Position numbers and translations under genes: made by a program. This document shows, piece after piece, positions 1-38,540 of a stretch of 39,311 nucleotides of DNA. Positions within the stretch are counted from its first letter, which is position 1. The number at the start of each line of letters is the position of its first letter. Below the pieces are notes generated by a model. That model ran no database searches. It was not told the DNA's origin and worked only from the letters and a program-made list of their open reading frames with translations. This DNA comes from Pseudogymnoascus verrucosus (lineage: Eukaryota), in the NCBI GenBank assembly GCA_001662655.1, contig KV460228.1; one strand, given 5' to 3'.

Positions 1-2049
1 GTATGCGAGCTCATCATCGCCTGCGGTTAGGGGCTGGGCTGAATCGTCTGGCGCAAGGACGACGTTGAGTGTGTGCAGGAAGATCCAGAAGACTTCCTTG
101 GTGACGTTTACGACCTCTTTGCACCAGACGCGGTAGGGACGCTCTTGGTGCATTTCCAGCACGAACGGCACCGGTCGTTCTTCCTCGGAGGGCATTGGGT
201 CGCGGAGGTGTTTTAGAAGGGTCTCTGCGCGCGCTTGGCGCTCGGGTAACGGCGCCGATTGGAGATACGTGAAGAGAAGGGAGCTGATAATCGTTCTTGT
301 TAAAAACTCACTCGGTCCCTTCTTCTCCTCATCAAAAAGCATACCCAGCAGCGCGGGGAAGAGCGAGGCCTGGATAAGTGCCAGATGCGACAGTGCGAGG
401 GCTGTGGTGCACAGTGCCTTGAGGCAGAGAAGTGACTCGTGAAGGAGTGCGTCCTCGTGCTCCTCTCGCCACTCAACAGCCATTATGCGGTGCAGTAAGG
501 CGATAATTTCTGTCATCCCACCGAGGGTGATGAACTCGTCTGTCCATGCTACGGTTTCGTTGCGGAGGAGCAGGCGGAGTTTGTGCAGCTTGCCGACCTC
601 GACAGACTCAGGCTTCTGCACTTTGCGAAGGTAGGCAACGAAGTCCGTGGCCAAGTGGCCCTTAGCTTTGGCAATGAGGTTGCTTGCCGCGCTGACGGTG
701 GCGGAGAGGGATTTACCCTTATCGGCTGTGCTATCTGAGGATTTTGTACGGGTGTGTCTGTTAGATGTCTCAGGCTTTGTCTCAGCGACATTTGCTCCCT
801 TCTTGCCGGATTTTGAGAGTGTGAATCCAGTGAATGTGCGGCTACGCGGGCGTTTGCTTTTTTGTGGCGAGGATTCAACTGTGTGTGACCCACTAGTTGT
901 GCTCTCCATGCTGCCAGCTGTTGTTGGGGGCTCTTTTTGAGAGGCTGCGGTCTCGGCCCAGTCCTGCCTTATGAAATCGATTTTCATCGTGTTGGCCAAG
1001 CTGCGCATCTTGTACCTCTGGTTCTCGGGTATATTTCTTCGGTCCAGCATAGCTTCGAACTCAGCATCAACGTCTCTCATATCCAGGGATGCTTCTGCCC
1101 CGGAGTTGTCTTCCTTCGGCTTTGCCTTCAAGTCCTGCTTGGACGGCAGCTTCTGTTCGGACTTCAGCACAGGTGTGGGTGCCACAGGTTGCTTCTGGTA
1201 AAACTGCTCTGTTGGAGACTCAGCGGCGCGAGTCCCTTCAAAGCTTGCAGGCCCAGCCTTGCTAGCTGGCCTACTGATATCCTGCACGATATAGCTGGCT
1301 GGAATCGACATGGAGTTTGGGCGTGATCCATCGCGCTGGCCCAGTGTAGGCGGCAAGCCTTCCTCAGCAAAGAAAGCGTCGTGATCATCAGAATAGCGTT
1401 CGTTTCCTGTGGGCACGTTGGTATCATCCTCGAGGAACCGGCCACCGAACTGCTGAGTGGCGAAATGCTGGCTAGAAAACTGTGTGTAAATTGGAGGTCG
1501 GGTAGGCGACTCCGGCGGCCTCGAGTTATTTGGTGGCTGGTTCTCTTTGTCTTTAATTGACATGAACCCAGCATCCGCAGCTAGCTTTTGGCGACTTTTG
1601 GAGGACCGCGGTCGTGTTAGAAGGGCTGCCAGATTGGTCGATGACTTTGACTTCTTCGGCTTGCGTTCCTTCTCCTCCTTGTTCTTATTTTCGTTGTCCT
1701 TGCTGGATAGTGACTTGAGTGAGATGGTGCTCAATGTCTTCTTGTGCAGGTATCGGAAGCCTTCCTTGTCCTTGCTCCGCTCGGCATCTTTGGACTTCCT
1801 CGGAGACGGAGGCTGTTCTACAGGCTTTTGTTGATTTTGATTGATCTCCCCCAGAGCTCTAGAATGAAAATAATCGGGGGGAGACACTGTCGCAGAGTTT
1901 GGTTGGTCATATCCAGGGGTAGCAACGAATATATCCGTTGGAGATGTCGATAATGGAGCTCCTTTGGAAGCCGATCGCTTGTGCATGAACGACCGCAACG
2001 CGGACTTCGTCCTCGTATGGTGGCGGGTGCTGTCCGTGGAATTCGACAT
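1..2049 (-). CDS. Formin GTPase-binding-domain (Drf_GBD) protein, Rid1-like; 3' end runs off the left edge of the window
   Basis: ATG at 2049 (MSNSTDSTRHHTRTKSALRSFMHKR...) is in the same frame as the translated segments near position 1. It is absent from the ORF track because there is no stop in the window. Motifs EFEAMLDRRNIPENQRYKMRSL, KLHKLRLLLRNETVAWTDEFI, EWREEHEDALLHESLLCLKALCTT and RPYRVWCKEVVNVTKEVFWIFLH match my recollection of fungal GBD/Rid1 proteins. Confidence 0.8.
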   Translation of the reverse strand, partial: MSNSTDSTRHHTRTKSALRSFMHKRSASKGAPLSTSPTDIFVATPGYDQPNSATVSPPDYFHSRALGEINQNQQKPVEQPPSPRKSKDAERSKDKEGFRYLHKKTLSTISLKSLSSKDNENKNKEEKERKPKKSKSSTNLAALLTRPRSSKSRQKLAADAGFMSIKDKENQPPNNSRPPESPTRPPIYTQFSSQHFATQQFGGRFLEDDTNVPTGNERYSDDHDAFFAEEGLPPTLGQRDGSRPNSMSIPASYIVQDISRPASKAGPASFEGTRAAESPTEQFYQKQPVAPTPVLKSEQKLPSKQDLKAKPKEDNSGAEASLDMRDVDAEFEAMLDRRNIPENQRYKMRSLANTMKIDFIRQDWAETAASQKEPPTTAGSMESTTSGSHTVESSPQKSKRPRSRTFTGFTLSKSGKKGANVAETKPETSNRHTRTKSSDSTADKGKSLSATVSAASNLIAKAKGHLATDFVAYLRKVQKPESVEVGKLHKLRLLLRNETVAWTDEFITLGGMTEIIALLHRIMAVEWREEHEDALLHESLLCLKALCTTALALSHLALIQASLFPALLGMLFDEEKKGPSEFLTRTIISSLLFTYLQSAPLPERQARAETLLKHLRDPMPSEEERPVPFVLEMHQERPYRVWCKEVVNVTKEVFWIFLHTLNVVLAPDDSAQPLTAGDDELAY

Positions 2050-2393
2050 AGTGGCCATCTTTATTGATATGATAATATATCAGGAGAACACTCTTGAATT
2101 TTTATTTCATGATTCCCTCAGTCGATGTTTCAGTCGTGGCGGTGAGTTGTCTTGACACTGGGTCGCTGGGTGCGACTTTGTTTTGCGAGACGTGGTTGTC
2201 ACGACAACAACACATATCTTATCACCGAAGTGGTGGGGGAAGGGTTCAACGAACCACGGCTGTCTTTCGGCCCAGGGACCACATCAAACATTCCCTAGCA
2301 ACCAGTCTTGCAATTCACGAATCTCCATTTAATAACATTGTATGCAACAGCAAGGGTTCTTTATATTTTGGTTCTAGCTCAAAATCTAAACAG

Positions 2394-5403: not shown

Positions 5404-6336
5404 TCAGATCTTGGATTTCGTGCGCCAGTCATTCTTTGGCGGATCGGCATCGATCTGGTTCCACCATGGCCACACCGAAGGTGCATCTTTCGGCACTGTC
5501 CCCTTAAACTGTGCCTGCCGTTTCTCCAAGAACGACTTAATACCCTCCGCATTATCCTTGCTCTTGAACAAGTCCAGGATAACCCTGGAAGTGATCAATT
5601 GAGCTCCCTCAGGCGAGTCAGGTCCACGCCAAATCAGATCCTTGTTCATCTGTGTGCTGACAGTGCTGGTGTTCCTTGCGATGTCATCAGCCAGCTCCAG
5701 AGCCCTCGGGAGGACCTTCTCTGGGTCAACAATCTCCGAAAAGAGACCGTCGAGCAGAGGCGAGGTGGACGGGTAGACGTCGCCCGTGGTAACAACGTGC
5801 GTGGCCTTGCTGTACCCGAGAAGGCGGGGGAGGAAGAAGGCCGACGCTGCCTCCATGACCAGGCCGCGACGTGCGAAGACGAATCCAATCTTGGCCTTGT
5901 TGCTAACAATACGGATGCTCATGGGGAGCGTCATGGTGATTCCAACGCCAACAGCCGAGCCGTTGATGGCAGCGATCACGGGCTTCGTGCAGCGGAAAAT
6001 GGATAGGGAAGTGATGCCACCTCCGTCACGGTGCGTCCTGTCGGTGTCCTCGCCGAATTCGAAGCCAATGTCAAGATCTGCGCCAGCACAGAACATCTTG
6101 CCGTGGCCGGTGACGACGATAGACTTGACACGGTCGTCTGCGGAAAGAAGGGCGAAGGCATTGCTCATCTCCCGTGTCATAACCTCTGTGTAGGCATTGT
6201 ACTTTGCAGGTCGGTAGAGAGTGATGAGAATGACTGGAGTGGGAGTTGGAGAACTTGCTGGGACGTGGGAGACGCGGATCTGTGTGTATGGCACATCGGC
6301 GTAGTTCGCCGGCGGCGCAACTGGAAGATTAGACAT
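5404..6336 (-). CDS. Enoyl-CoA hydratase/isomerase (crotonase) family protein, probably peroxisomal
   Basis: Intronless, 310 aa. Crotonase motifs FCAGADL, KPVIAAINGSAVGVGITMTL, GFVFARRGLVMEA and EGIKSFLEKR. C-terminal -SKI is a PTS1-like tripeptide. Confidence 0.92.
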   Translation of the reverse strand: MSNLPVAPPANYADVPYTQIRVSHVPASSPTPTPVILITLYRPAKYNAYTEVMTREMSNAFALLSADDRVKSIVVTGHGKMFCAGADLDIGFEFGEDTDRTHRDGGGITSLSIFRCTKPVIAAINGSAVGVGITMTLPMSIRIVSNKAKIGFVFARRGLVMEAASAFFLPRLLGYSKATHVVTTGDVYPSTSPLLDGLFSEIVDPEKVLPRALELADDIARNTSTVSTQMNKDLIWRGPDSPEGAQLITSRVILDLFKSKDNAEGIKSFLEKRQAQFKGTVPKDAPSVWPWWNQIDADPPKNDWRTKSKI

Positions 6337-6936
6337 CGTTTTTTGCGGCTGTATGGTGAATGAATATAAAATCGTAGATGGATTCTAGTATAAGATCGCC
6401 AAACCTCACCTTGGGCTACTCAAGCTACTATAGCTTTAGTTGTTAAATAATAGAAAGCCGCAGAGTACCTCGGCATAGATCCAACTGGATGATGGAGCAC
6501 CAGATGTCAAGGTACCCGGGTTGGTCTCCACCAAACAACCGAGTCCAGAATGCGGGGTACGACGGTACGTACTTCTTAACCTGGAGACGACCCGTCGCTT
6601 CATCAACATGCTCGCTCCTGATATCATCATCACAACGAGCATTCTGTCCAAAGAGCAACTAAGGGCCTGGTAATATATGATAGATATCCGCTTGCGTCGC
6701 TCGCTATGGATTTTCTGCTCTCTTATGACAAAGGGAGGCAACGACCACCGAACCCGTCTGTTATGATCTGCATATGGTAAGAGCAATTTCTTTGTTTTCT
6801 CATTTCTATAATCATATAGAAATATTCTTTGTCTGATCATTATATCACCCGTCATCCATCCAGCACCATCCTTTTCATTATTTCCAATACAGTTGGCAAA
6901 AAAACGAATTTCAGGCCTGCATTTTTATATTTCAAA

Positions 6937-11900: not shown

Positions 11901-13045
11901 CTAGCATAGCTTTCCTGGTGGCTTTGCTCTTCAGCTCTGTTCCTTTCCATAGTATCTTCAGACCGCGCCAGCATGTCCTCGAGTTTCTGATCTGACTCTT
12001 GGAGCTCCGTGAGGTTATCCTTCAAGTCATCAACGTCTTCGCGGCGCCGTTCAGCTTGATAACGCTTGTTTTTCAATTCGTTAACAATGCCTTGGAATTC
12101 CTGGGCTTGCTTGGTGTTCTCTCTTGCGCTGTCCAGCGCAAATTGCATGTCTTTCGTAAGCTGCTCGCTTTCGGAGCGTAGCTTTTCAATTTCGTCCTGA
12201 AGTTGCATGGACTTTTTCTCTGCCCTTTCACCTCTGTCCTTCTCCGTCTTGTACTGATCCTCGAACATCTTGTGCTTTGCCAAAGCGATGCCCTGGTTCT
12301 TTCTGACGACCTTGATATTCTCTATCGCTTTGGTGTACTTGAGAGCTTCGAAAATCTCATCGAACTTCTTCTTGAGCACCGAAGGCTCGCTCATGGGCCA
12401 TAACGACTCGTCCTGGTGGCAGAATATAACAGAATCCAGAATGGCCTCAGATACTCCCAAATACTGGGGCATAATCTGGTCCAACTCCGCAACCCGGGAA
12501 GATATCGTAGTTCTCTCGCCATCCTTTATCATCAACAGCTGGCCCTCTAAGGTTTTCTGTGATCTCGTAGTTTTCTTGACCGTGAGTTGTAAACTTCGAG
12601 TGACGACCAGTCTGGCGCCTTGCGTGCCCTTGAAGGATAACTTGACTTGTGCAAGAACCTCCTTTTCACCACAGAGCTTGGGGTCGTGAATGAAAGCTCC
12701 GCCTTTGCTATTCGGGGGGAGTTGTCCCGTTGTAGCGTACTTGAGACACTCGATAATCGTTGTCTTCCCTGAGCCATTGTACCCCACGATGAGCGTTAAT
12801 GGCGTGTGGAACTGTATCGTCTCGCTGCGGATGTTGTCGAAAGATCTCACCCTGTCAATATGGGTCAGCTACTGGCACCATGGGAGGTCCGCAGTATATA
12901 CCCAAGGATGGACAACTTATCGATTTTTGCTATAATAAACTAGTTAGCTGCCTGGAAGGCTGGCCCAGAAGCCGTATGTACATACACCTGTAACCCACTA
13001 TTAGCGCGACGTCTTCAGCTATCTAGGAGAGGGTAAGCTTTACAT
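8909..13045 (-). CDS. RAD50: DNA repair protein Rad50 (MRN complex); coding exons 13045-13044, 12987-12986, 12929-12902, 12851-9209, 9157-8909
   Basis: Walker A GYNGSGKT, Q-loop FCHQDES, long coiled coils, Zn-hook CHLC, signature CSAGQ and Walker B ALDEPTTNLD. The spliced N-terminus reads MSKIDKLSILGVRSF. Introns 13043-12988, 12985-12930, 12901-12852 and 9208-9158 are all GT..AG with branch motifs. Confidence 0.97.
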
Positions 13046-13203
13046 CTTGTCTATCTGGCAGTTCTGCCGCCACAGTAGCTATGTTACATGCCCATGGAAG
13101 ATTTGTTGTTGGGGGACATGGAGGCCGATATTGGGAAGTCAACGAATGGACGCCCTTTGATACCGTATAGTACGTACATAAATGTATGCAAGGGTGAGAC
13201 GGA

Positions 13204-13231: not shown

Positions 13232-13572
13232 AGGTGGGGGGTTGGTCTCAAGGTGATGTCCCAGCCTAACTTCCCAAGGGTTGACAGATGTCGGTGATTC
13301 TTACTATAACATAGATGTATAAGTTATAGCATGTTTCATTTGTGAAATGCCCCCAGATGATTCTGGGGTTTGGTAATATTTAAGTCAACTTGTGTGCGGG
13401 TTCACAACCCAAAATGCCGCCAGAACCAGCGCCAGCCATTGCTATTCTGGCTAATGATCCCTCGACCATGTACTATGGAGGCCAAGATGATGGAGATTTA
13501 TGTGTGGGTATTCAAGGCACCGAAAGGGAACTTCGCGTTCAAAACTTTAGCAGAGACTAATTACCCTTTTAG

Positions 13573-15004
13573 ATGATCAATGAACCGCCCATGACCGATA
13601 CGCTTGAAGAGAACCACGTCCATAGCCTTGGAGATCTCCCTATTTTTGAATCCGGAGATCTTCGCCTTGTAGACCTAGGTGTCCAAGCAAGCCAAGATGG
13701 TAAGGGGTGCTTTCTTCTTGAATATGACTGCTCGAAAACAAAGTAACAGGGCTTCAGATGAAACCAGTGCTCCACAAACCTACAATGAGAACGCAATAAA
13801 CGTGACAGGCGCCGGCGCCACATCCACGTACTTTGCAACGCAATCCTCTCAAGTAGGAAACATCGCAGGCAACGAGTTCACCAAAAATCGAAGTTGGATG
13901 CAGGAGATCGTAGAAGAGTTGAAAGATCTCATTCACGTCCTAGCTCCGGATGGTCGCGTGCTCTATATTTCAGACAGCGTCAAGCAACTGACAGGATATA
14001 CCCCGGAAGATATAATAGGTAAATCGATAGTAGACTTCATACATCCAGACGACAGTGCTATGTTTGTCCGCGAATTTAACAATTCCGTCACAAGCGGGGA
14101 TGCTCTACGGGTTTTCTACCGGTTCCGCAAACAGACCGGCGGCGACTACGCGGTTCTTGAATGTCATGGCCAACCGCATTTAACCAGCGGGACTACTTCT
14201 TCTAGTCAGAATAACTCCTCGACGTCTTGCAACGGTTTCTTCATGGTGTCGCGTCCGTACCCAAGCAAGAACGCCGCTCTGCTGGACTCCTTCCTCGAAC
14301 ACAAAATTGAGAATGAACGCCTCATGAAGAAGATCGAGGACCTACGCCGCGAAGACGCGGAGGAGCAAGATGACTACCAACCTCAATACAAGAAAGAGTA
14401 TGAAGGACCTTGGGAGCAATACTCCGCACGGGAAAGCAACGCCGCCTTGCCAGTTGGAATGGGCCATTCTTCAAACTCCGAACTTCTTGCCATGCCCCCC
14501 CCAGCCAACACCACCTCCTGGCAGGGTCATGAAGATGCAAGTTCAAGCAGCAAACCAGACTCTGCGGAGGAAAAATCCGTGGTCTATAAAGGGGCAACGA
14601 ATGTCGAAACTATCGAGATGTTAACCGGGCTCCGCTACCAAGACGGAGAACGCAGCAAGGGTATTAGCACCGGCGATGCCTCTCCCACACTTACTCGTGG
14701 GGATTCAGGCGCCACTATGCAAGTTGATAAGGACGGCAGGAGCGTGGACAAGAAGAAGAAACTCAAAACTGCAGACAAGTATATCTGTACGGACTGTGGT
14801 ATGCATACACCAAGAGTTGAACCGTATCGATTCCATTCCGAACTAACTGACTTATTAGGTACCCTCGACTCGCCGGAATGGCGCAAAGGCCCTGAGGGAC
14901 CAAAAACGCTGTGCAATGCATGTGGTCTCCGTTGGGCGAAGCAGGAAAAGAAGAAGTCGGGGGGGTTCACTTTCAATAATGGCGGTGGGGACATGCATTT
15001 ATAA
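13573..15004 (+). CDS. wc-2: White collar-2-like PAS + GATA zinc-finger transcription factor; exons 13573-13699, 13758-14798, 14859-15004
   Basis: PAS domain (DLIHVLAPDGRVLYIS...DFIHPDDSAMF), SRPYPSKNAALLDSFLEHKIENERL, MLTGLRYQDGERSKGISTGD, and after removal of intron 14799-14858 the GATA finger [30 protein letters not shown]. Exon 1 is less certain. Confidence 0.85.
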
Positions 15005-20724: not shown

Positions 20725-22586
20725 TCAGCTCTTGTACGAATCCTTCCCAAGACCCACAACATTCTTCAAGCTCCCAAACGCAAGCACATCGCTAATACGT
20801 GTCGCTCCCGACATCAACATGCACAACCTATCAATCCCACATCCCCACCCACCCGTAGGCGGCAACCCCCACTCCAGTGCTTCCAAATAACTCTCATCAA
20901 TAACTGCCTCATTCTCCTCATCCTTCCACTGCACCTGCTGAACAAACTTCCGGCGCTGTTCAAACGGCGAATTCTCCTCCTCATACATGTTTGCAAGCTC
21001 CTTGTGCTGCACAAACAGCTCCACGCGAGCGGACACGAGCTGGTTGGTGGCTGGATCGCGGAAGGACTTTGCGAGGGGTGCCATGCATGCGGGGTGGTGT
21101 ATTATAAAGGTCGGGGCGTCGCAGGAGGGCTCGAGGTATATCGAGGCGAGCTTGTCGAGCATTCGGGGAAGGGTGGGGGATGAAGGAAGGGGCTGGGAAA
21201 GTTCGGAGAATAGAGAGGCAATTGCTTCTGCTGCGTTCTCGGCTTCGAGGTCTGGTAGCTTGCGTCCGATTCGCTGCTCCAGGTCGGGTATAAACTCAAT
21301 CCGCTGAAAGGGTGCTGTGAATAAGTTTGTATCCAGCGGGTCCAATGAAGTGAGTTTTGATGATATGAGCTCGTTCACATGGCTGGCAAGCCCCGAAAAC
21401 AGGTCCTCAGTCATCTTAATGAGCTCCTCCAGGTCGGCAAAAGACTTGTAGAATTCGCAGGTTGTAAACTCGGGGTTGTGCGTTGCGTCAAGGCCTTCGT
21501 TTCGGAAGGCAGGGCCGATCTCAAACACGCGGTCCATGCCGCCCAGTATCAACCTCTTGAGCCATATTTCAGGTGCAATTCGAAGTGAGAGGGTCTTTGT
21601 TGAGAATTCCGTGGCCACCGTGTTAAAAGGGCGTGCAATCGCACCACCAGCATCCTCAGCGATGATTGGTGTCTGAACCTCGAGGAAGTCATCTGCTATT
21701 AGGAAATTGCGTAGATACTGCACGATATGAGAGCGGAGTTTTAATGTATCTGCAACTTTCTGGTTGACCAAAATATCTGCGTGTCTGTTCCTGATCCTTG
21801 TTTCCGGGTCGTCGAGGGTGTTTGGCAAGCTAGCCAGCGCAGGTGTGAGGATGACGGGGAGTTTCGTGGCATTGATAGATAGTTCACCTCTCTTTGTGCG
21901 CGTGGGCACACCTGTTATCTCTATGGAATCTGTTAATGGATGCAAAAAAAACAGCGATTTTCGAGAACCATACCGACTATATCGCCTCGTCTGGCAAGGT
22001 GGTAAAACTCCTTAAACTGCTCTGCCTGGACGTCATCCTCGGTCTGAAGACGACGCAGGTTCACCAATCCTTGGACTCTGTTCCCGTCCTGAACAACATC
22101 GAGGAATGCGAGCTTGGTGCCCGCAATTCGCGAGGAGTATAACCTCCCTAATACAATCAATCAGTCATGATGGACACAGGTGCTACGACGACTCAACATA
22201 CCGCGAAGGGTCACATTGTCACTTTCTCTTGATTCTTCGGGATTCAGCACGGCATATCGTTTCTTAAACTCTGCACAACTAATTGCATTTCTATCTGGCT
22301 GGATTCGAGGGTATTTTAGGGCATTTGCATTTTGGAGCTCCTTCAGGCGCTGCTGAAAATCATCGCTTCTCTTGCCAATTGAAGTTCCTTTACTTTCTTC
22401 TGTGGGTGCACCAGCCTTGGTGCTATATGTGCATGTAGACCAGCCCGAGGCGCGGCTTGGTGACCGTGAGAGTCCAGTCAGGTTCCTGCCTGTGGAGTAA
22501 AATAATATGTAGGCATCCTTCGTCGCGAAGGACAGGTCCCTGTGCGTCCGCGGATACAAAAACTTGAGCAATGGTCTGGCAGTCAT
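20725..22586 (-). CDS. MSK1: Mitochondrial lysyl-tRNA synthetase (class II); exons 22586-22202, 22147-21974, about 21920-20725
   Basis: Class II LysRS motifs FLEVQTP, AGGAIARPF, LRIAPEIWLKRL, FEIGPAFRNEG..HNPEFT and EWGLPPTGGWGCGIDRL. The Arg/Ser-rich, acid-poor N-terminus resembles a mitochondrial presequence. Introns 22201-22148 and 21973-about 21921. Confidence 0.9.
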
Positions 22587-27627: not shown

Positions 27628-28978
27628 ATGGAAGCGCTTCAATTAGAGCTTGCCCGGCTGCAGAAAGACGCCTCACTATCACAGAGTATTGAGGATGTTG
27701 ACAAAGTCTTGGAGCAGCTGTGCAATGCACGGGAGGCAATTGCAGCAGGTTAGGACCACCATCACAGGCACTCTACGTCAGCACACCGCTGACAGACCTC
27801 CAGACTCGAACACTGCATCAATAACCCTTGCCAAGTTGCAGAATCCATTTAAACAGGGACTGGATAGAGTCACAGATGACCTTAAGAAGATATACTCTGC
27901 GCATAATAAATATGGAAAGGCGTTGGATAAGGTATGGAACCGGTCGTGGCACTGATGCTCAAGCTAACTCTTGATCTTCTAGAACCTATCGCAGAAGTCT
28001 CTTCCATCAGAAACCCTCTCGACCGATTATGATGCTCTTGCTTCACATCCGACCCTTATCAACCGGGCTATTGCCATGCATCTTCTTCGCGAGGGCCAGT
28101 TCGGTGTTGCTTCTACATTCATCGAAGAGGCGCACGCGAGCCCACCAGAAGCAAAGCCTACCCCAGGAACGCCGAATCCATATCCCGGTGATGAAGAGGA
28201 GTTTACATCCCTAAAGTCTCAAGAGCTACAAGCGAAGTTCGCGAACATGTACGCCATATTGGGACACCTCCGAGAGAGGAACTTGTTGCCAGCCATTGAA
28301 TGGGCTAGGGAACATAGTTCTGAACTGGAGAAGCGAGGTAGCAACCTTGAATTTGAGCTTACCAAGCTACAATACGTCTGGCTCTTCCAAGGACCTCAGG
28401 TGAACGGCCTACCGAACGATTCACGGAATGGTCTCCTCGGGGCTATTACATATGCACGGGAAAACTTTGGGCGGTTCCAGGCTCGCTTCCTCCGCGACAT
28501 CCAGCAGTTGTCTGCAGCCATGGCATTTGAGTCGAACTTGCAAGACTCGCCGTATCGTCTCACTTTTGAGACCGACAGTGCCTGGAGCGAAGTTGCACAA
28601 TCGTTTACGCGTGAATTCTGCTCCCTACTTGGGTTATCTGCAGATTCACCCCTCTACATTTCTGTCACGGCTGGGGCCATTGCGCTCCCCACGTTACTCA
28701 AACTGGCGAATATCATGAAGGAGAAGCGGACGGAGTGGACGACGCAGCACGAGCTGCCCGTTGAAATACCACTGCCAAGGTCGATGACTTACCACGCGAT
28801 CTTTGTCTGCCCAGTCAGCAAAGAACAGAGCACTGAGCAGAACCCTCCAATGATGATGCCGTGCGGCCATGTCGTCGCCAAAGAGAGTCTGCAGAGGCTG
28901 AGCAAGGGCCAGCGGTTCAAGTGCCCCTACTGCCCCAGCGAGAGCTTTCCAAGGGACGCAAAGGAGATATATCTATGA
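27628..28978 (+). CDS. RMD5: GID/CTLH E3 ligase RING subunit Rmd5/Gid2; exons 27628-27748, 27804-27931, 27983-28978
   Basis: LisH (LINRAIAMHLLREGQF), CTLH (PAIEWA...SNLEFEL), CRA and degenerate RING YHAIFVCPVSKEQ...NPPMMMPCGHV...FKCPYCP. Both introns are canonical and frame-consistent. Confidence 0.93.
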
Positions 28979-32540: not shown

Positions 32541-34234
32541 ATGTCTGAGATCCAAAAGCCAGTTGAGGAGGTCGTCGCCGTCGTTGAGGCTGCACCTGCT
32601 GAGGTCGTCGCCGCACCTGTCGAGGAGGTTGCCCCAGTTGAGGTCGCCCCCGTCGAGGTTGCTGCTGCCACCACCGAGGAGGCCACCGCAGAGGCCGCTG
32701 TTGAGACCCCGAAGAAGGAGTTTGAGGGTGAGGGTGTTATCGGCTACAAGGCACCAGGTGGTTTCATTAAGTAAGTTATTCCGCAGATCGAAATCGTATG
32801 ATACGAAATCGAATCATTTTATCACATGTTCCACAAATACTAATTCATACATCAGGAAGCTTGCTGGTTTCCAGAAGCGTTTCTTCTGGTTCGGCACTGA
32901 TGCCGTTGAGGTGAAGAGCCTCTCCAACTACCTCCGTGGCGAGAAGCCAGAGGCTGGCAACCACAACGCCGCCTGGGCTTCCCAGACCGGAAAGGGTCTC
33001 CTCTACTTCAGCAAGCAGGCTGGAGAGAAGAGCGCCCCAGTTGGCCTCATCAACCTCGTAAGTGATACACAAATTCACGTGCTTTACACTCAAGACATCG
33101 ACTAACAAATATTCACAGGCCGATATCACCGATATCAAGGAGGATGGTACCGTTGAGTTCTCTTTCGTCAGCCACAGCCAGAAGCACGTCTTCCAGGCCG
33201 CCAACCTTGTCGACCGTGACAGCTGGGTCGCCGCCCTCAAGGAGAAGTCCGTCGAGGCCAAGGAGAGCACCGAGGCCATCACTGGCAGCGAGGGTTACAA
33301 GGAGCAGCTTGCCAGCTTGAGTAAGCCTGTCGTTGTCGCCGCCAAGGTTGAGGACAAGAAGGAGGAGAAGGCTGTCGCCGCTGAGGAGACCAAGCCCGAG
33401 GAGGTTAAGGAGGTCGCTAAGGAGGAGACCAAGGAGGAGAAGAAGGCCCGCACCAAGAGCCGCTCTGCCAGCCGCAAGCGCAACTCCATCTTCGGTGGAT
33501 TCAACTTGGGAAGCAAGAAGGAGGAGGTCGTCGTCGCCGACAAGGCTGTCACCGAGGAGGAGCCAGTTGCTGAGGCCGCCCCAGTCGAGGCTGCTGTTGT
33601 TGAGGAGGCTGCTGCCCCTGTTGAGGCCGCTGCCACTGAGGCCGCCGTTGTCGAGGAGGCTGTTGTCCCAGAGACCCGCCCAGCTGCTTCCAAGCGCCAC
33701 TCTTCCCTCTTTGACTTCAAGTCCCGCTTTGGATCCAAGAAGGCTACTTCCGAGGTTACCCCAGCTGTCCCAGCCAAGGATGATGAGGTTGTGACCAGCA
33801 CCGAGGCCCCAGTTATCCCTGCCGTTGAGCAGTCCGAGCCCCTTGCTACCAGCATTGCTAGCCCCGCCACCGTCCCCGCTGAGGAGGTTGTTGCCGGAGA
33901 GCCCGTTGCTGAGGTCGCCCCCGAGGCCACCAAGGCTGAGAAGCGCAAGTCTGCCCTTCCATTCGGTCTTGGACAGAAGAAGGAGAAGGTCGAGAAGGCC
34001 CTCGAGGCTGAGGTCGAGAAGGCCGAGAAGTCCCTCTCCCCCTTCGCCAAGCTCCGCCAGACTGTGAAGGGCAAGGCCTCGCCAAAGGCCGCCGAGAAGG
34101 CTGCTGAAACTGAGGCCGAGACCCCAGCCGCAACTGAGGCCGCCGCCGAGACCACCGTTGAGGCCGCCGCTGAGGAGCCCGTCGTCGCTGCACCAATCCA
34201 GACCACGACCCCCGTCGTTTCCGCCACCGCCTAA
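32541..34234 (+). CDS. PH-domain (Meu6/PH_6-like) Ala/Glu/Val-rich protein; exons 32541-32770, 32856-33057, 33119-34234
   Basis: Introns 32771-32855 and 33058-33118 join three ORFs in frame. PH-like core EGVIGYKAPG...KRFFWFG...AAWASQTGKGLLYF...HVFQAANLVDRDSWVAAL; SRSASRKRNSIFG motif. Strongly C/G-ending codons suggest high expression. Confidence 0.85.
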
Positions 34235-35554
34235 ACGATAAATTAATGAGTCCTCATCTCCGTCGTTCTGGATCGCATCTCGTTACCATACCCACGATAC
34301 CACCTTGATTTTGCATCAGGTCTGTTTTGTCATTGCATTTTCTGCTTGTGTTGATACCCCTATACCCAGGCTGTTTCTCTCATCTGCCGCTAGGGCACAC
34401 TCACTCCATAATACTTAATATATTTGAGATTGTCCTGTTATATACATACTTCTATATATGATTGTGATTGCATTGTAATTTGTGAATGCTAGTTTGGCAA
34501 TATACCCAGCTGTTCAGTTTGTAAAGGTAACATCAGTTACTTGTAACATAATCTTGTAAAAACGACCCACGTTGAACCTGCGGCAGCCGGTTATGGATTA
34601 GGCGCTTATAATAAGTCAACTCAAACCACCTGTTCAGATCATCTATAATTATACAAATTAGCACTATGCTATATTATATTAGATAAATTATTGCCCATCA
34701 GTTCTACGAACTGCACTTTACTGTATTAATAGGTATTAGGAGAAAATTCCCACACCAAAATTGGCCGAGTGTCTAAATACTCAATGGTATTTTTCCAGCT
34801 CATTATTCGCACAAGTCTTCTACAAAGCTTTGTGCGGCACAAGTATAATCTCAGTTACCTTCTCTTCATAGATATATATATATTCAACTAACCCACAGTT
34901 TACTCGTTGCAAATAACCTGTAGACTACATACGTTATACGGACCGAGCCGCCTACTCCAAAGATGCATTGGCAAAATTGCCTTCGCAAATAAAATCAGTT
35001 TCACACAGGGTAGAACTATACAAGGTGAGTATGTCTAGGTTAGTTAGCCATAACCACAACTCCTGTGCGCCATTTATGGAATTATAAGCATCAATCATTG
35101 CTGCATTATATGCTCTAAGATTGATTTATCACTAATATCTGAACTTCCACTCGCCCTACACCCACCACGTACTAAGCGCCTTGAAACCACATGCATAAAT
35201 GTTATAGAGGTTAACACAAGACAGGAATGCTAACAGGACAGCAGATCTACCTTTAACACACCTGCATTTACAACCAATTAGGCACATACAATGTTTCAGG
35301 CTAGATGGCACGTTAAACTGCCCTTATTTTTTTGTTAGTAACGGCCAGCGTTACACAGCATTTAACTGTCGGCGTGTCTCATAGCTATTAACCAACATGA
35401 GGCTATGATCTACACAGTTGTGTTGGCTTTGCATTTTCACTTCTATTAAATAGCAATATGATCCATCCCCCTCTCAGCTATTCCCATAATATAACCTCTA
35501 GTAAAGGCATTCCACAACCTAATATGCGTTTCTCACCGACTGCTCTTATGTTCA

Positions 35555-35814
35555 TTAACAGTTTTAGATTTGCCATACAAAAATTTAGTATGGCAAAAGT
35601 TAAAACCTTTAGTAACTTGCGGAAAAAGACGCTAGTGCTATTAGCATTTTTATATATAGTAGATGATGATTTAAAGTTCCTATATATAAGAGGAATATGC
35701 TCTAGCATTTTTATCTACAGAGTTATTAAGGTTCTAATTTTCGTAGATGAAAGTACCTCTACATACAAATTTGTATGTGGTGGTACTAATAGCCGGTTAG
35801 GCCACGACTTACGT
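35555..35814 (-). mobile_element. Truncated (half) MITE related to the element at 38646-39129
   Basis: Ends ...TAGCCGGTTAGGCCACGACTTACGT followed by TA (35815-35816). Its reverse complement aligns by eye with the left arm of the 38646 MITE up to the central palindrome (TTTGCCATAC...GTATGGCAAA). The left boundary is approximate. Confidence 0.7.
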
Positions 35815-36160
35815 TACATTAAATACATTTTCTTTAGTTATCTAAGAATTATCCTTATTTATCTAAGTTACATTAGCATTTTAAGTTATAAAATTTATTA
35901 GAAAAGCCTTAGTAAGCTTTAGACTATATATTTTTCTTCTTATTATATAAGTTGTATTATTATATAAGTTGTACTACTCGTTTATATAAAGTATTACTTG
36001 TTTGTATAAAGTGTAAAGTTTATAATAAAAGTAACATACATGTTAGAGTGGCAACGCATGTACTAACAATGTCACGTGTATATAAACAAACAACAACTCG
36101 CGTGATAACTTAGAACATGTGTAGGAATAACAAAACACTAACGTAAGTCATGGTGTAAAG

Positions 36161-36236
36161 NNNNNNNNNNNNNNNNNNNNNNNNNNNNNNNNNNNNNNNN
36201 NNNNNNNNNNNNNNNNNNNNNNNNNNNNNNNNNNNN
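36161..36236. other. Assembly gap (76 N)
   Basis: Run of N inside the left TIR of the transposon. Confidence 1.
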
Positions 36237-36259
36237 GGGTAAAGTCGGTAGTGGGGTTA

Positions 36260-36754
36260 ACGTAAGTCATGGTGTAAGCGGCGATATGGCGTAAGCGGCG
36301 ATAAGTACCCTTACATATACATTTGTATGCAAAGGTACTTCTACATCCGAAACTAAAATCTTAAATAGCTCTATGGATAAAATTTATTAGGCTTAGCTGT
36401 TCGATATTTAGGTTCTATATATAGGCCTTTACATAACATAAAAACGTTAGTGTTACTAGTGTCTTTTTGCAACGCTAATTTAAGGGTTAAGTCTTACTCA
36501 TACAAATATTTGTATAAGCAATCTTCTCCTATTAATAGAACCACAATAACGACACTAGCAATACTAGTCTTTTGATATATTATAGAAGTGTATATATAGA
36601 ATCTAAATACCAAACAGCTAAGCCTAGCGATTTTTATTAACAGAGTTATTAAAGTTTTTATTTTTAGAAGCGTAAGTATCTTTGCATACAAATTTATATG
36701 TAAGGGTACTTATCGCCGCTTACGCCAGATCGCCGCTTACACCATGACTTACGT
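36260..36754. mobile_element. MITE (495 bp), hairpin-type, inserted at a TA in the transposon left TIR
   Basis: TIRs ACGTAAGTCATGGTGTAAGCGGCGAT.TGGCGTAAGCGGCGATAAGTACCCTTACATAT... at both ends. TA duplication at 36258-36259 and 36755-36756. No coding capacity. Confidence 0.92.
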
Positions 36755-36804
36755 TAGGGCCACCCTATCAAAACCATTAAAAAATTGTAACAATTCAATT
36801 ATTA

Positions 36805-38540
36805 CTATGCTAATTCATCTATATCATTATTAGAAAGCTCCTCTTTGCTCTCCTCGCTCTCTTCTTCACTCTCACTATTAGTTAAGTTAACTATTAAGGT
36901 AGGTTGTTGCGTTGTTCTAGACCTCTGTGAAGCTGTTGCTGCTTCTGCTTCTACAACTTGCGACTACAACTCCTCTCTTAAGATGTGGAATTGACCCTTT
37001 AAAACAGCTCTTTTGCCCTTATTCTGTGCTCTACGCTTCTGAATAATTGAGGGTAAGTTATCACACACTCTTTTTTGAAGGGTGTTGCGTGTATTAAGGC
37101 GTTCTGACTCATCTGCTAACTTATTGATATATCGCTTTGTAGGAGTATTAAGAGCACTACTACAACTTATTGTAGTAGACAGAACTGTATTTGCTTTGTG
37201 AAGTGTTTGAAAATCAGGTGGACTGCTATTCAAAAATACCTTCTCAAAAATATCATGCTCTGTAGGAGTATGTGGTCGTTCTACTACTACTACATCTGTA
37301 GTAGGAAGCGTAGCTGCTTGTATGACTGTCTACGGCTAGAATGGCTGTAGCCCACTCCCTCTCTAAGTAGAATTGATATTTGAAGTTGAAAAAGCAGCTG
37401 CTCTTATAGTAATATATGCATCTATCCATTCTGACTTCTATATACATAGGAGTTGTGCCTCATTTAGGTGTAAGAGAGCAGTTGTAAGGTGTTGCTTTAA
37501 GGGCCTAAAAATCGAAATATTAAGTGGCTGTAGAACAGAGTGATATTCGATTTTGAATGTAGTGTGATATAAAGCTTCCACTTATATGACTATTGTGACC
37601 ATTGCAAATAAGGAGCTGTTGTTGTAGTTTTCCATTTAAAAGTATTGCTTTTACTCTTGTAGAGGGCTTAAAAACACGTTTTAGCTACTCTAATCTATGT
37701 AGATTACTTATCTACCCTTTGTATTTATAGAGAAGTGCCATTTTTGTATAACTTCCTTTAGAATCCAGCTTTGTAAGATATTCTGTCCTTTGAAAATAAT
37801 AAGGGGGTTAATAGCTATTCTGTCTATACAAACGCATTTAATAGCAGACACCTATTCCTGTCAGCTAGGATAAGCTTGAAATCGCGTATAGAGCGTAGAG
37901 TCGACTATAATTCATATAGATTACATAGTTCTAATCGAAAATCTAGTTTCATCTATATTATAGGTGTTGTAGTTTTCGATTTTTAGCTCTGTTGTAAGGC
38001 TCTTATACGTGTCAAACTACCCCTTTAACACCTGCTTTATAACCCTATTTATCCTCTATGCCTTAACTCTACGTCCTAACTTAACACGTAAGTTAGGATG
38101 CCTTTGAATGAATTGTAGAACCCACTCTTGCCTAAGAGGTAAGTTAGGTATTTGAGGTTGAGGTTGTTGAGGTTGTTGAGGTTGTTGTGTTTGTTGTTGC
38201 TATTGTTGTAGTTGAGGCTAAAAAACGCAACACTTATTTGATTGGACTTCCTCTGCAACCTTACGTAATATCTAATAACTAGGAGCGTAGCCACTTATAG
38301 TAAGCTCCTTAATCCACTTTAGGAGCGTTTGCTCTTAAGTTTTAGATAATAACTGCTGTTTTTAACGCGCTTCAACACGCGTTTTGCCACCTTTTATACG
38401 TCGCTATAGAGTCCTTTCACACAGCCTAAAGCCTTTGCAGCAGCATATGAAGATTTAAATTTTCTAGACTTTATTCCTAAAATAGCTTCATAAAGTCGAA
38501 AATCAAGCTCTTGAGCCTTAATACTCCTACGTTCAACCAT
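36805..38540 (-). pseudogene. pogo/Fot1 DDE transposase pseudogene
   Basis: ATG 38540 MVERRSIKAQELDFRLYEAILGI...SSYAAAKALG (HTH-psq-like) and QLLSKT*EQTLLKWI (CENP-B-like HTH). Degenerate catalytic motifs YNIDETRF (from YNMDETGF), LLICNGHNSH (from DGH) and LQPLNISIFRPLK (from QPLD). Many stops and frameshifts. Confidence 0.88.

Follow-up and report, generated by a model that had tools for sequence, protein, structure and literature searches.

The start codon of RAD50 in Pseudogymnoascus verrucosus is probably assembled by two introns around a two-nucleotide exon

How does the Rad50 protein of Pseudogymnoascus verrucosus acquire its first methionine? In the 39,311 nucleotides (nt) of contig KV460228.1 (assembly GCA_001662655.1) that we analyzed, and that we call the window, the RAD50 gene lies on the minus strand and no contiguous ATG opens its conserved reading frame. 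We consider, with a probability of about 0.75, that the start codon is split by two U2-type introns placed around an exon of 2 nt, and that this layout is most likely constitutive. Support comes from the sequence anatomy of the locus, from the conserved N-terminus of Rad50, from the lack of any simpler canonical gene model and from the misannotated start of this protein in relatives, and from these we infer both the actual use of the two introns' sites by the spliceosome and the order of their removal. The gene model has the following parts, with a slash marking a splice boundary wherever sequences are quoted below.

13045-13044, minus strand: end of the 5' exon, AT, bases 1 and 2 of the start codon, in the context ACAAG-AT with an A at -3
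13043-12988, minus strand: intron A, 56 nt, with donor GTAAAG, branch site GCTAAT and acceptor TTACAG
12987-12986, minus strand: putative 2-nt internal exon, GT, contributing the G of ATG and the T of the Ser codon TCA
12985-12930, minus strand: intron B, 56 nt, with donor GTATGT, branch site GCTAAC and acceptor TTATAG, phase 1, in codon 2
12929-12902, minus strand: 28-nt exon beginning CA AAA ATC GAT AAG and made up of CA, the codons for KIDKLSIL, and GG
12901-12852, minus strand: third intron, 50 nt, GTATAT...GCTGAC...GACAG
12851-9209, minus strand: main RAD50 exon of about 3.6 kb, with Walker A GYNGSGKT, zinc-hook CHLC, coiled coils and signature region
9208-9158, minus strand: in-frame intron, 51 nt, GTATGT...GCTAAC...CCACAG, between ...GVNCG and LIALDEPTTNLD
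9157-8909, minus strand: last RAD50 exon, including the stop codon
13089-13088, minus strand: AT followed from 13087 by GTAACA, an alternative AT/GT donor that gives a 100-nt version of intron A with the same acceptor

A scripted reading of the minus strand returned, base for base, the splice-site sequences, the coordinates of the two 56-nt introns and the 2-nt exon at 12987-12986 that an earlier note on this DNA had reported, and it likewise bore out the three products that the note had derived from them. Removal of introns A and B gives ATG TCA AAA ATC and a protein that begins M-S-K-I-D-K-L-S-I-L-G-V-R-S-F; the unspliced RNA reads ATG TAA; and skipping of the GT leaves AT-CA, in which the start codon is lost. 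The same reading places the branch-site A of intron A 13 nt from the 3' end of the intron. The GT exon, which we propose on the basis of sequence and protein conservation, would have the AG of intron A immediately before it and the GT of intron B immediately after it (TTACAG/GT/GTATGT, 12993-12980). It has the properties expected of an exon shorter than 3 nt: the introns on either side carry complete sets of splice signals, their length is usual for this genome, and the conserved protein needs the 2 nt. Under this gene model the 5' splice site of intron A lies inside the ATG (AT/GTAAAG), which makes it a start-codon intron. Retention of either intron closes the frame, intron A through TAG at 13025-13023 with no ATG within it, and intron B at 12942, and use of the alternative donor at 13087 leads to an identical coding start. 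The microexon model predicts the cDNA junction AAGATGTCAAAA and the read ACAAGATGTCAAAAATC.

The identity of the gene, as the earlier note had it, is well founded. The main open reading frame (ORF) translates to Rad50, its best database matches being the proteins named Rad50 of P. destructans (GMDG_02537) and Pseudogymnoascus sp. VKM F-4518, and Rad50 chains in the PDB match it at 8e-81. The complete spliced model comprises 3924 nt and encodes 1307 amino acids with one stop, which is terminal, and this protein is 95.6% identical to that of P. destructans and 94.1% identical to that of VKM F-4518, which places the window in a Pseudogymnoascus-like fungus of the Thelebolales (Leotiomycetes). As expected of Rad50, the SMC-like ABC ATPase of the Mre11-Rad50 complex with a length of about 1300 amino acids, it carries GYNGSGKT at residue 34, CHLC at 688 and LIALDEPTTNLD at 1226, which we take to belong to the N-terminal Walker A motif, the central CxxC zinc hook and the C-terminal signature and Walker B/D-loop region. 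The junction formed by the third intron (L-G/V-R-S-F) agrees with all homologues. The 51-nt intron at 9208-9158 contains no stop codon and is missing from the Pseudogymnoascus proteins P0002 and P0003; its retention would add 17 residues just ahead of the Walker B/D-loop region.

The N-terminus that the two splicing events would produce is the one that conservation calls for. In the solved Rad50 structures of Chaetomium thermophilum (7zr1, 5da9) and yeast (9bi4), exactly 11 residues precede the V/I-R-S-F strand, and the modelled M-S-K-I-D-K-L-S-I-L-G has the same length. A whole-library search added 146 cluster representatives, 95 of them with the N-terminal motif; among these 95, M and one further residue form the start of 80, the Met alone is missing from 3, and 12 have an extension. 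Four relatives (P0005, P0047, P0103 and P0108) begin M-S-K-I-D-K-L; the first of them, a protein of 1308 amino acids, comes from a contig of 4273 nt, and intronless contigs of this type, which barely exceed their ORF, are probably transcripts. In other species (P0109, P0073, P0173 and P0218), the read-through 5' frame gives K-M-S (AAR ATG T), like the AAG-AT of the window.

We asked how often such an arrangement would arise by chance by scanning all window positions on both strands for AT followed by GT...CTRAY...YAG, with a length of 45-100 nt and with CTRAY 8-30 nt from the end. An element of this kind ends at 34 of 78,382 positions (4.3e-4), which is an upper bound for chance because the count takes in real introns. 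Only two of these elements run into GTGT: the one at RAD50 and one near 37851 (minus strand), the latter (AT/GT...CTGAC...YAG/GTGT) probably a chance match in low-GC sequence. It lies in an AT-rich block (about 34000-38000) with a GC content of 0.34-0.40, against about 0.50 elsewhere in the window.

Simpler canonical models fare poorly. In the roughly 1.2 kb upstream there are nine ATGT, and in no case (0/9) is GT or GC the next dinucleotide; a single canonical intron therefore cannot yield M-S. We also tried 17 single-intron models that reach the acceptor at 12930 with an in-frame ATG, and rejected them as sources of this N-terminus: none yields M-S, and their donors are poor (GTCCAT, GTATCA, GTTCCG, etc.) or their introns exceed 850 nt and enter the neighbouring gene. 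As predicted from the DNA, two introns around a 2-nt exon are thus the sole canonical GT-AG solution that yields the conserved M-S.

The introns themselves resemble their neighbours. As a qualitative guide we picked by eye about 14 likely introns from 162 noisy ORF-joining candidates (553 in another screen); they measure 49-85 nt, begin with GTAAGT, GTATGT or GTTAGT, and have CTRAY 5-18 nt before YAG. Intron B agrees with this pattern in full, and intron A agrees in length, branch site and acceptor. A likely 53-nt intron at 26693-26641 (minus strand; GTTAGT...GCTAAC), which joins two long ORF segments (88 and 831 codons), has AAG in place of YAG at its end (GTAAAG/gt), from which it follows that non-YAG acceptors may be tolerated in this genome. 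A recent duplication as the origin of the equally long introns A and B is not supported: their global alignment is not significant, with 5.7% of 2000 shuffles scoring as high, and they resemble each other only around the branch site and the TAGT that follows it.

Database entries for relatives carry the trace of the same difficulty, and the prediction of the earlier note that automated annotation would miss the start holds for both Pseudogymnoascus orthologues, whose N-termini are spurious. The P. destructans protein is annotated as MIAEDVALIVDYR-SK..., that is, with intron A read through and joined at donor B; its residues AEDVALIVDYR correspond to AEDVALIVGYR in the frame of the 3' part of intron A in the window, the longer window frame being IAEDVALIVGYR. 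The R-S junction of this model implies the donor and acceptor pair of intron B, and the VKM F-4518 model (P0003), annotated as MYVLYSIKGP-K... from an upstream ATG and a poor GTCCAT donor, shares the acceptor. We gathered 187 homologues, of which 116 have a KIDKL-type motif within their first 400 residues; 58 of the 116 start with M-S, and the other 58 have unrelated leaders that end in A, P, T, R-S, etc. In the remaining 71 of the 187, the first conserved strand is either absent or does not appear in the first 400 residues; many of these entries begin inside the ATPase domain. The N-terminus of Rad50 is therefore a systematic annotation problem in Pezizomycotina entries, and the pattern of leaders is what a phase-1 intron in codon 2 would be expected to produce across Pezizomycotina if it followed a coding exon too small for gene finders.

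How the two introns would be removed can be sketched from their sites. Both are ordinary U2-type introns of 56 nt, each complete in the primary transcript, so that intron definition would act twice. Pairing of U1 with the donor spans positions -3 to +6, and U1 bound at donor B would cover the AG of intron A, which makes simultaneous full assembly unlikely and removal probably sequential; the separation of acceptor A and donor B by only 2 nt leads to the same view. Either order of removal gives the same mRNA, AUGUCA. Should intron A leave first, the junction would present two donors 2 nt apart, AT/GTGTAT and ATGT/GTATGT, of which only the second keeps the AUG, and GTATGT is the commonest donor type of the window. 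If inclusion of the GT failed, the mRNA would lack a start codon.

Several observations weigh against this reading. The second AT/GT donor at 13087 competes with donor A, which has no G at +5 (GTAAAG) and is weaker than most donors picked in the window; the third intron, which is well supported, likewise has a base other than G at this position (GTATAT). Once intron A is gone, a competing GTGTAT donor stands 2 nt before GTATGT, and splicing from it would abolish the start codon. The set of local introns was chosen by eye out of a noisy list of 162 candidates. Finally, the mature mRNA cannot separate the 2-nt exon from a one-step AA...AG excision of 13041-12930, an alternative to which we return below.

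The arrangement could also be a regulatory device, as the earlier note suggested in proposing on/off control of a double-strand break repair gene, in which Rad50 synthesis is turned on or off, for example after DNA damage, by whether the GT is included or skipped or by keeping an intron in the RNA (AUG-UAA start-stop). Such a switch would draw on features that the locus does have, namely an AT-CA product with no start codon when the GT is skipped, an unspliced RNA that reads AUG UAA, a competing GTGTAT donor and a second AT/GT donor, and a weak donor A. We nevertheless regard it as unlikely and the proposed control as unsupported. The ATG-TAA follows automatically from AT and the GTAA of a consensus donor; the RNA structure is unremarkable, since over 12895-13075 the z-score is +1.13, 170 of 200 shuffles fold as well or better, and the splice sites are not brought together; and Rad50 is a housekeeping repair and telomere factor. 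Moreover, should the layout be as widespread as the protein sequences hint (see below), a constitutive, tolerated structure would explain it at least equally well. The two introns and their 2-nt exon would then be a frozen accident of intron evolution and not a switch.

A second alternative holds that a conventional start of the kind annotated in VKM F-4518 is real, with ATG at 13179, an exon encoding MYVLYGIKG, and an intron of 222 nt from donor GTCCAT at 13151 to the acceptor at 12930, giving an N-terminally extended Rad50 (...GP-KIDKL). The closest relative, P0003, is annotated in this way, and the window has the same ORF and donor. It is, however, very unlikely. The GTCCAT donor departs from the consensus at +3 and +5; an intron of 222 nt is far above the 49-85 nt of likely window introns; the extension is not conserved, that of P. 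destructans being different and incompatible with it; and M plus one residue is what 80 of the 95 representatives and the solved structures have. The read-through of the P. destructans type, for its part, is impossible in the window because of the TAG at 13025-13023 and the absence of an ATG.

The one-step excision introduced above would make ATGTCA without any 2-nt exon, by removing 112 nt (13041-12930, AA...AG) in a non-canonical manner and keeping the GT at 13043-13042. Its product is identical to that of two introns flanking a GT exon, and since the microexon GT is the same as the first two bases of intron A, an RNA-seq aligner would presumably place the genomic ATGT contiguously and give exactly this 112-nt AA-AG junction. 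For the same reason mature mRNA cannot reveal which GT has been kept, so that the lack of reads that include the GT microexon, put forward by the earlier note as a refutation, is unworkable as a test. We consider the one-step excision highly improbable: AA-AG is not a spliceosomal boundary, and the 112 nt hold two complete sets of canonical signals, each half being a typical 56-nt intron, for which the chance of such placement is about 4e-4. They are in addition about twice as long as the usual intron of the window, an argument also made for the 1-nt exon of Fusarium (PMC12940212).

A degenerate 5' end, with a non-AUG or downstream start or with RAD50 as a pseudogene, could account for the missing contiguous ATG and might use the near-cognate ATA and GTG that stand in frame in intron A, yet it is scarcely credible given that the other 1296 codons are intact with a single terminal stop, that identity to the P. 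destructans protein is 95.6%, that the zinc hook and every ATPase motif are retained, and that a start at the first downstream Met would cost Walker A.

On this reading the putative RAD50 exon belongs to a known class of exons shorter than 3 nt; the comparisons below are with those sections of the cited reports that describe the exons and introns concerned. Exons of 1 nt are described in Arabidopsis APC11 (PMC4674806), in plant APC11 and VPS55 (PMC8831610) and in Fusarium CYP621A (PMC12940212), the last presented as the first such exon in a fungal gene. In VPS55 the missed exon has led to wrong N-terminal peptides in annotations (PMC8831610), and for APC11 sequential removal of both introns has been proposed (PMC4674806). 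These exons and that of RAD50 share AG/GT bounds, a size below 3 nt, canonical introns on both sides, a need for the exon in the conserved protein and omission from annotation, as well as, for Fusarium, a combined "intron" of about twice the usual size (PMC12940212). They differ in that the RAD50 exon would have 2 nt and not 1, in that it stands at the start of the coding sequence and completes the initiation codon, so that skipping would end initiation whereas skipping of the 1-nt exons shifts the frame, and in that the 1-nt exons are backed by reverse transcription PCR or SRA reads, while the RAD50 exon is predicted from sequence and protein conservation. Neither the gene structure of RAD50 nor an exon of 2 nt was the subject of any paper that we found among Creative Commons-licensed PMC articles and bioRxiv.

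Three further systems invite comparison. In the stwintrons of Pezizomycotina, an internal intron interrupts the donor, branch site or acceptor of an external one (PMC8469720, PMC6616335, PMC5639578), and nothing stays between the two. RAD50, likewise from a filamentous ascomycete, resembles them in that two U2 introns lie side by side and are probably removed consecutively, but its introns are complete and independent and 2 nt would be kept, so that the likeness to stwintrons drawn by the earlier note fails in the defining sense, neither intron interrupting a signal of the other. We rejected this candidate: none of the six signals is broken or overlaps another, and removal of the 114 nt as a stwintron would leave AT-CA, without a start codon. 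Recursive splicing uses AG/GT ratchet points, or zero-length exons (cited in PMC4674806), and RAD50 likewise has juxtaposed 3' and 5' splice sites (CAG/GTGTAT), presumably stepwise removal and a regenerated 5' site. Its productive donor would, in contrast, lie 2 nt further on (GT/GTATGT) with 2 nt kept, and its introns measure 56 nt against tens of kilobases. A zero-length recursive exon was therefore also rejected, as use of CAG/GTGTAT would delete the G of ATG. In Yarrowia lipolytica, 42 introns have their 5' splice site after the A, T or G of the start codon (PMC13309789); there, as predicted for RAD50, the start codon exists only after splicing, but the introns are single, whereas RAD50 has a second intron 2 nt later.

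The homologues also allow us to ask how old the layout may be. Among them, 20 proteins have x-S before the motif, where x is not M, and in 13 of the 20 x is R, an excess with a binomial p of 3e-9 against 6/61 when relatedness is ignored. R followed by the T of the Ser codon fits translation of ...YAG/GT/GT... (AGG T). The 13 proteins come from Leotiomycetes (Pseudogymnoascus, Xylogone, Cudoniella), Eurotiomycetes (four Aspergillus, Penicilliopsis, Penicillium, Talaromyces), Thelocarpales and Orbiliomycetes (two species). Among them are P. destructans GMDG_02537, Xylogone PMI_703, Cudoniella acicularis, Aspergillus wentii, A. mulundensis, A. multicolor, Penicilliopsis zonata, Talaromyces verruculosus, Thelocarpon impressellum and Orbilia oligospora, whereas A. 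aculeatus and Coniochaeta are examples of the M-S group. A dipeptide compatible with CTRAY (for example T-D, S-N, T-N, P-N, L-T or L-I) occurs at most 10 residues upstream in 7 of the 10 R-S proteins that have at least 4 upstream residues (background 0.23, p 0.002). The residue before R is compatible with a codon ending in C or T in 11 of 12 cases, which carries little weight as about 80% is expected by chance.

Counter to great age, the R may be encoded by CGN, and the Q-R-S of Orbilia brochopaga does not fit. K-S (2), V-S (2), I-S, T-S and L-S fall outside the explanation offered for R-S, and the M-S models of JGI-annotated species are compatible with one intron or with two. A scan of genome contigs with the Rad50 alignment, seeking fungal contaminant contigs, returned 33 loci, all of them prokaryotic. 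From the protein sequences we suggest only tentatively that AT/intron/GT/intron/CN may be an ancient feature of RAD50 across Pezizomycotina (Orbiliomycetes, Leotiomycetes, Eurotiomycetes and Thelocarpales).

Divergent from RAD50 and sharing with it an intergenic region of about 630 bp is a plus-strand gene at 13679-15004 that encodes a PAS domain and a GATA zinc finger (Pfam PAS_3 7.8e-15, GATA 9.8e-13) and that we take to be a White-Collar-2-like light regulator. Eight ATGs lie upstream of the RAD50 start on the minus strand, at 13339, 13332, 13312, 13212, 13179, 13119, 13095 and 13089; the five from 13212 onward are in the same frame and run to a common TAA at 13086-13084, and the ATG at 13089 is at once an ATG-TAA start-stop and the site of the possible alternative AT/GT donor. 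If the transcript starts upstream of them, these ATGs are upstream ORFs. Other recognizable genes of the window, listed here, are ordinary housekeeping context.

1-2079, minus strand: formin-like Drf_GBD protein, running off the window
5404-6384, minus strand: enoyl-CoA hydratase
20725-22011, minus strand: class II aminoacyl-tRNA synthetase (D/K/N type)
27983-28978, plus strand: CTLH and RING protein

What would this locus mean for the fungus and its relatives? The RAD50 exon would extend the list of exons below 3 nt and be only the second in a fungal gene, the one fungal report that we found being that on Fusarium CYP621A. It would also offer a natural test case of an intron-defining spliceosome that must handle an acceptor and a donor separated by 2 nt. 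Since every intron starts with GT, a GT microexon would be invisible to read aligners, which would report an AA-AG junction or discard the read. The correct N-terminus of Rad50 is the first strand of the ATPase head, and its loss affects orthology, structure modelling and the design of knock-outs and tags. If the layout is indeed ancient, a 2-nt exon would have persisted over hundreds of millions of years, translation of a protein central to genome stability could begin only after two back-to-back splicing events, and this would be why about half of the Rad50 N-termini in databases for the subphylum are wrong; the arrangement would then serve as a marker and exemplify extreme conservation of a microexon.

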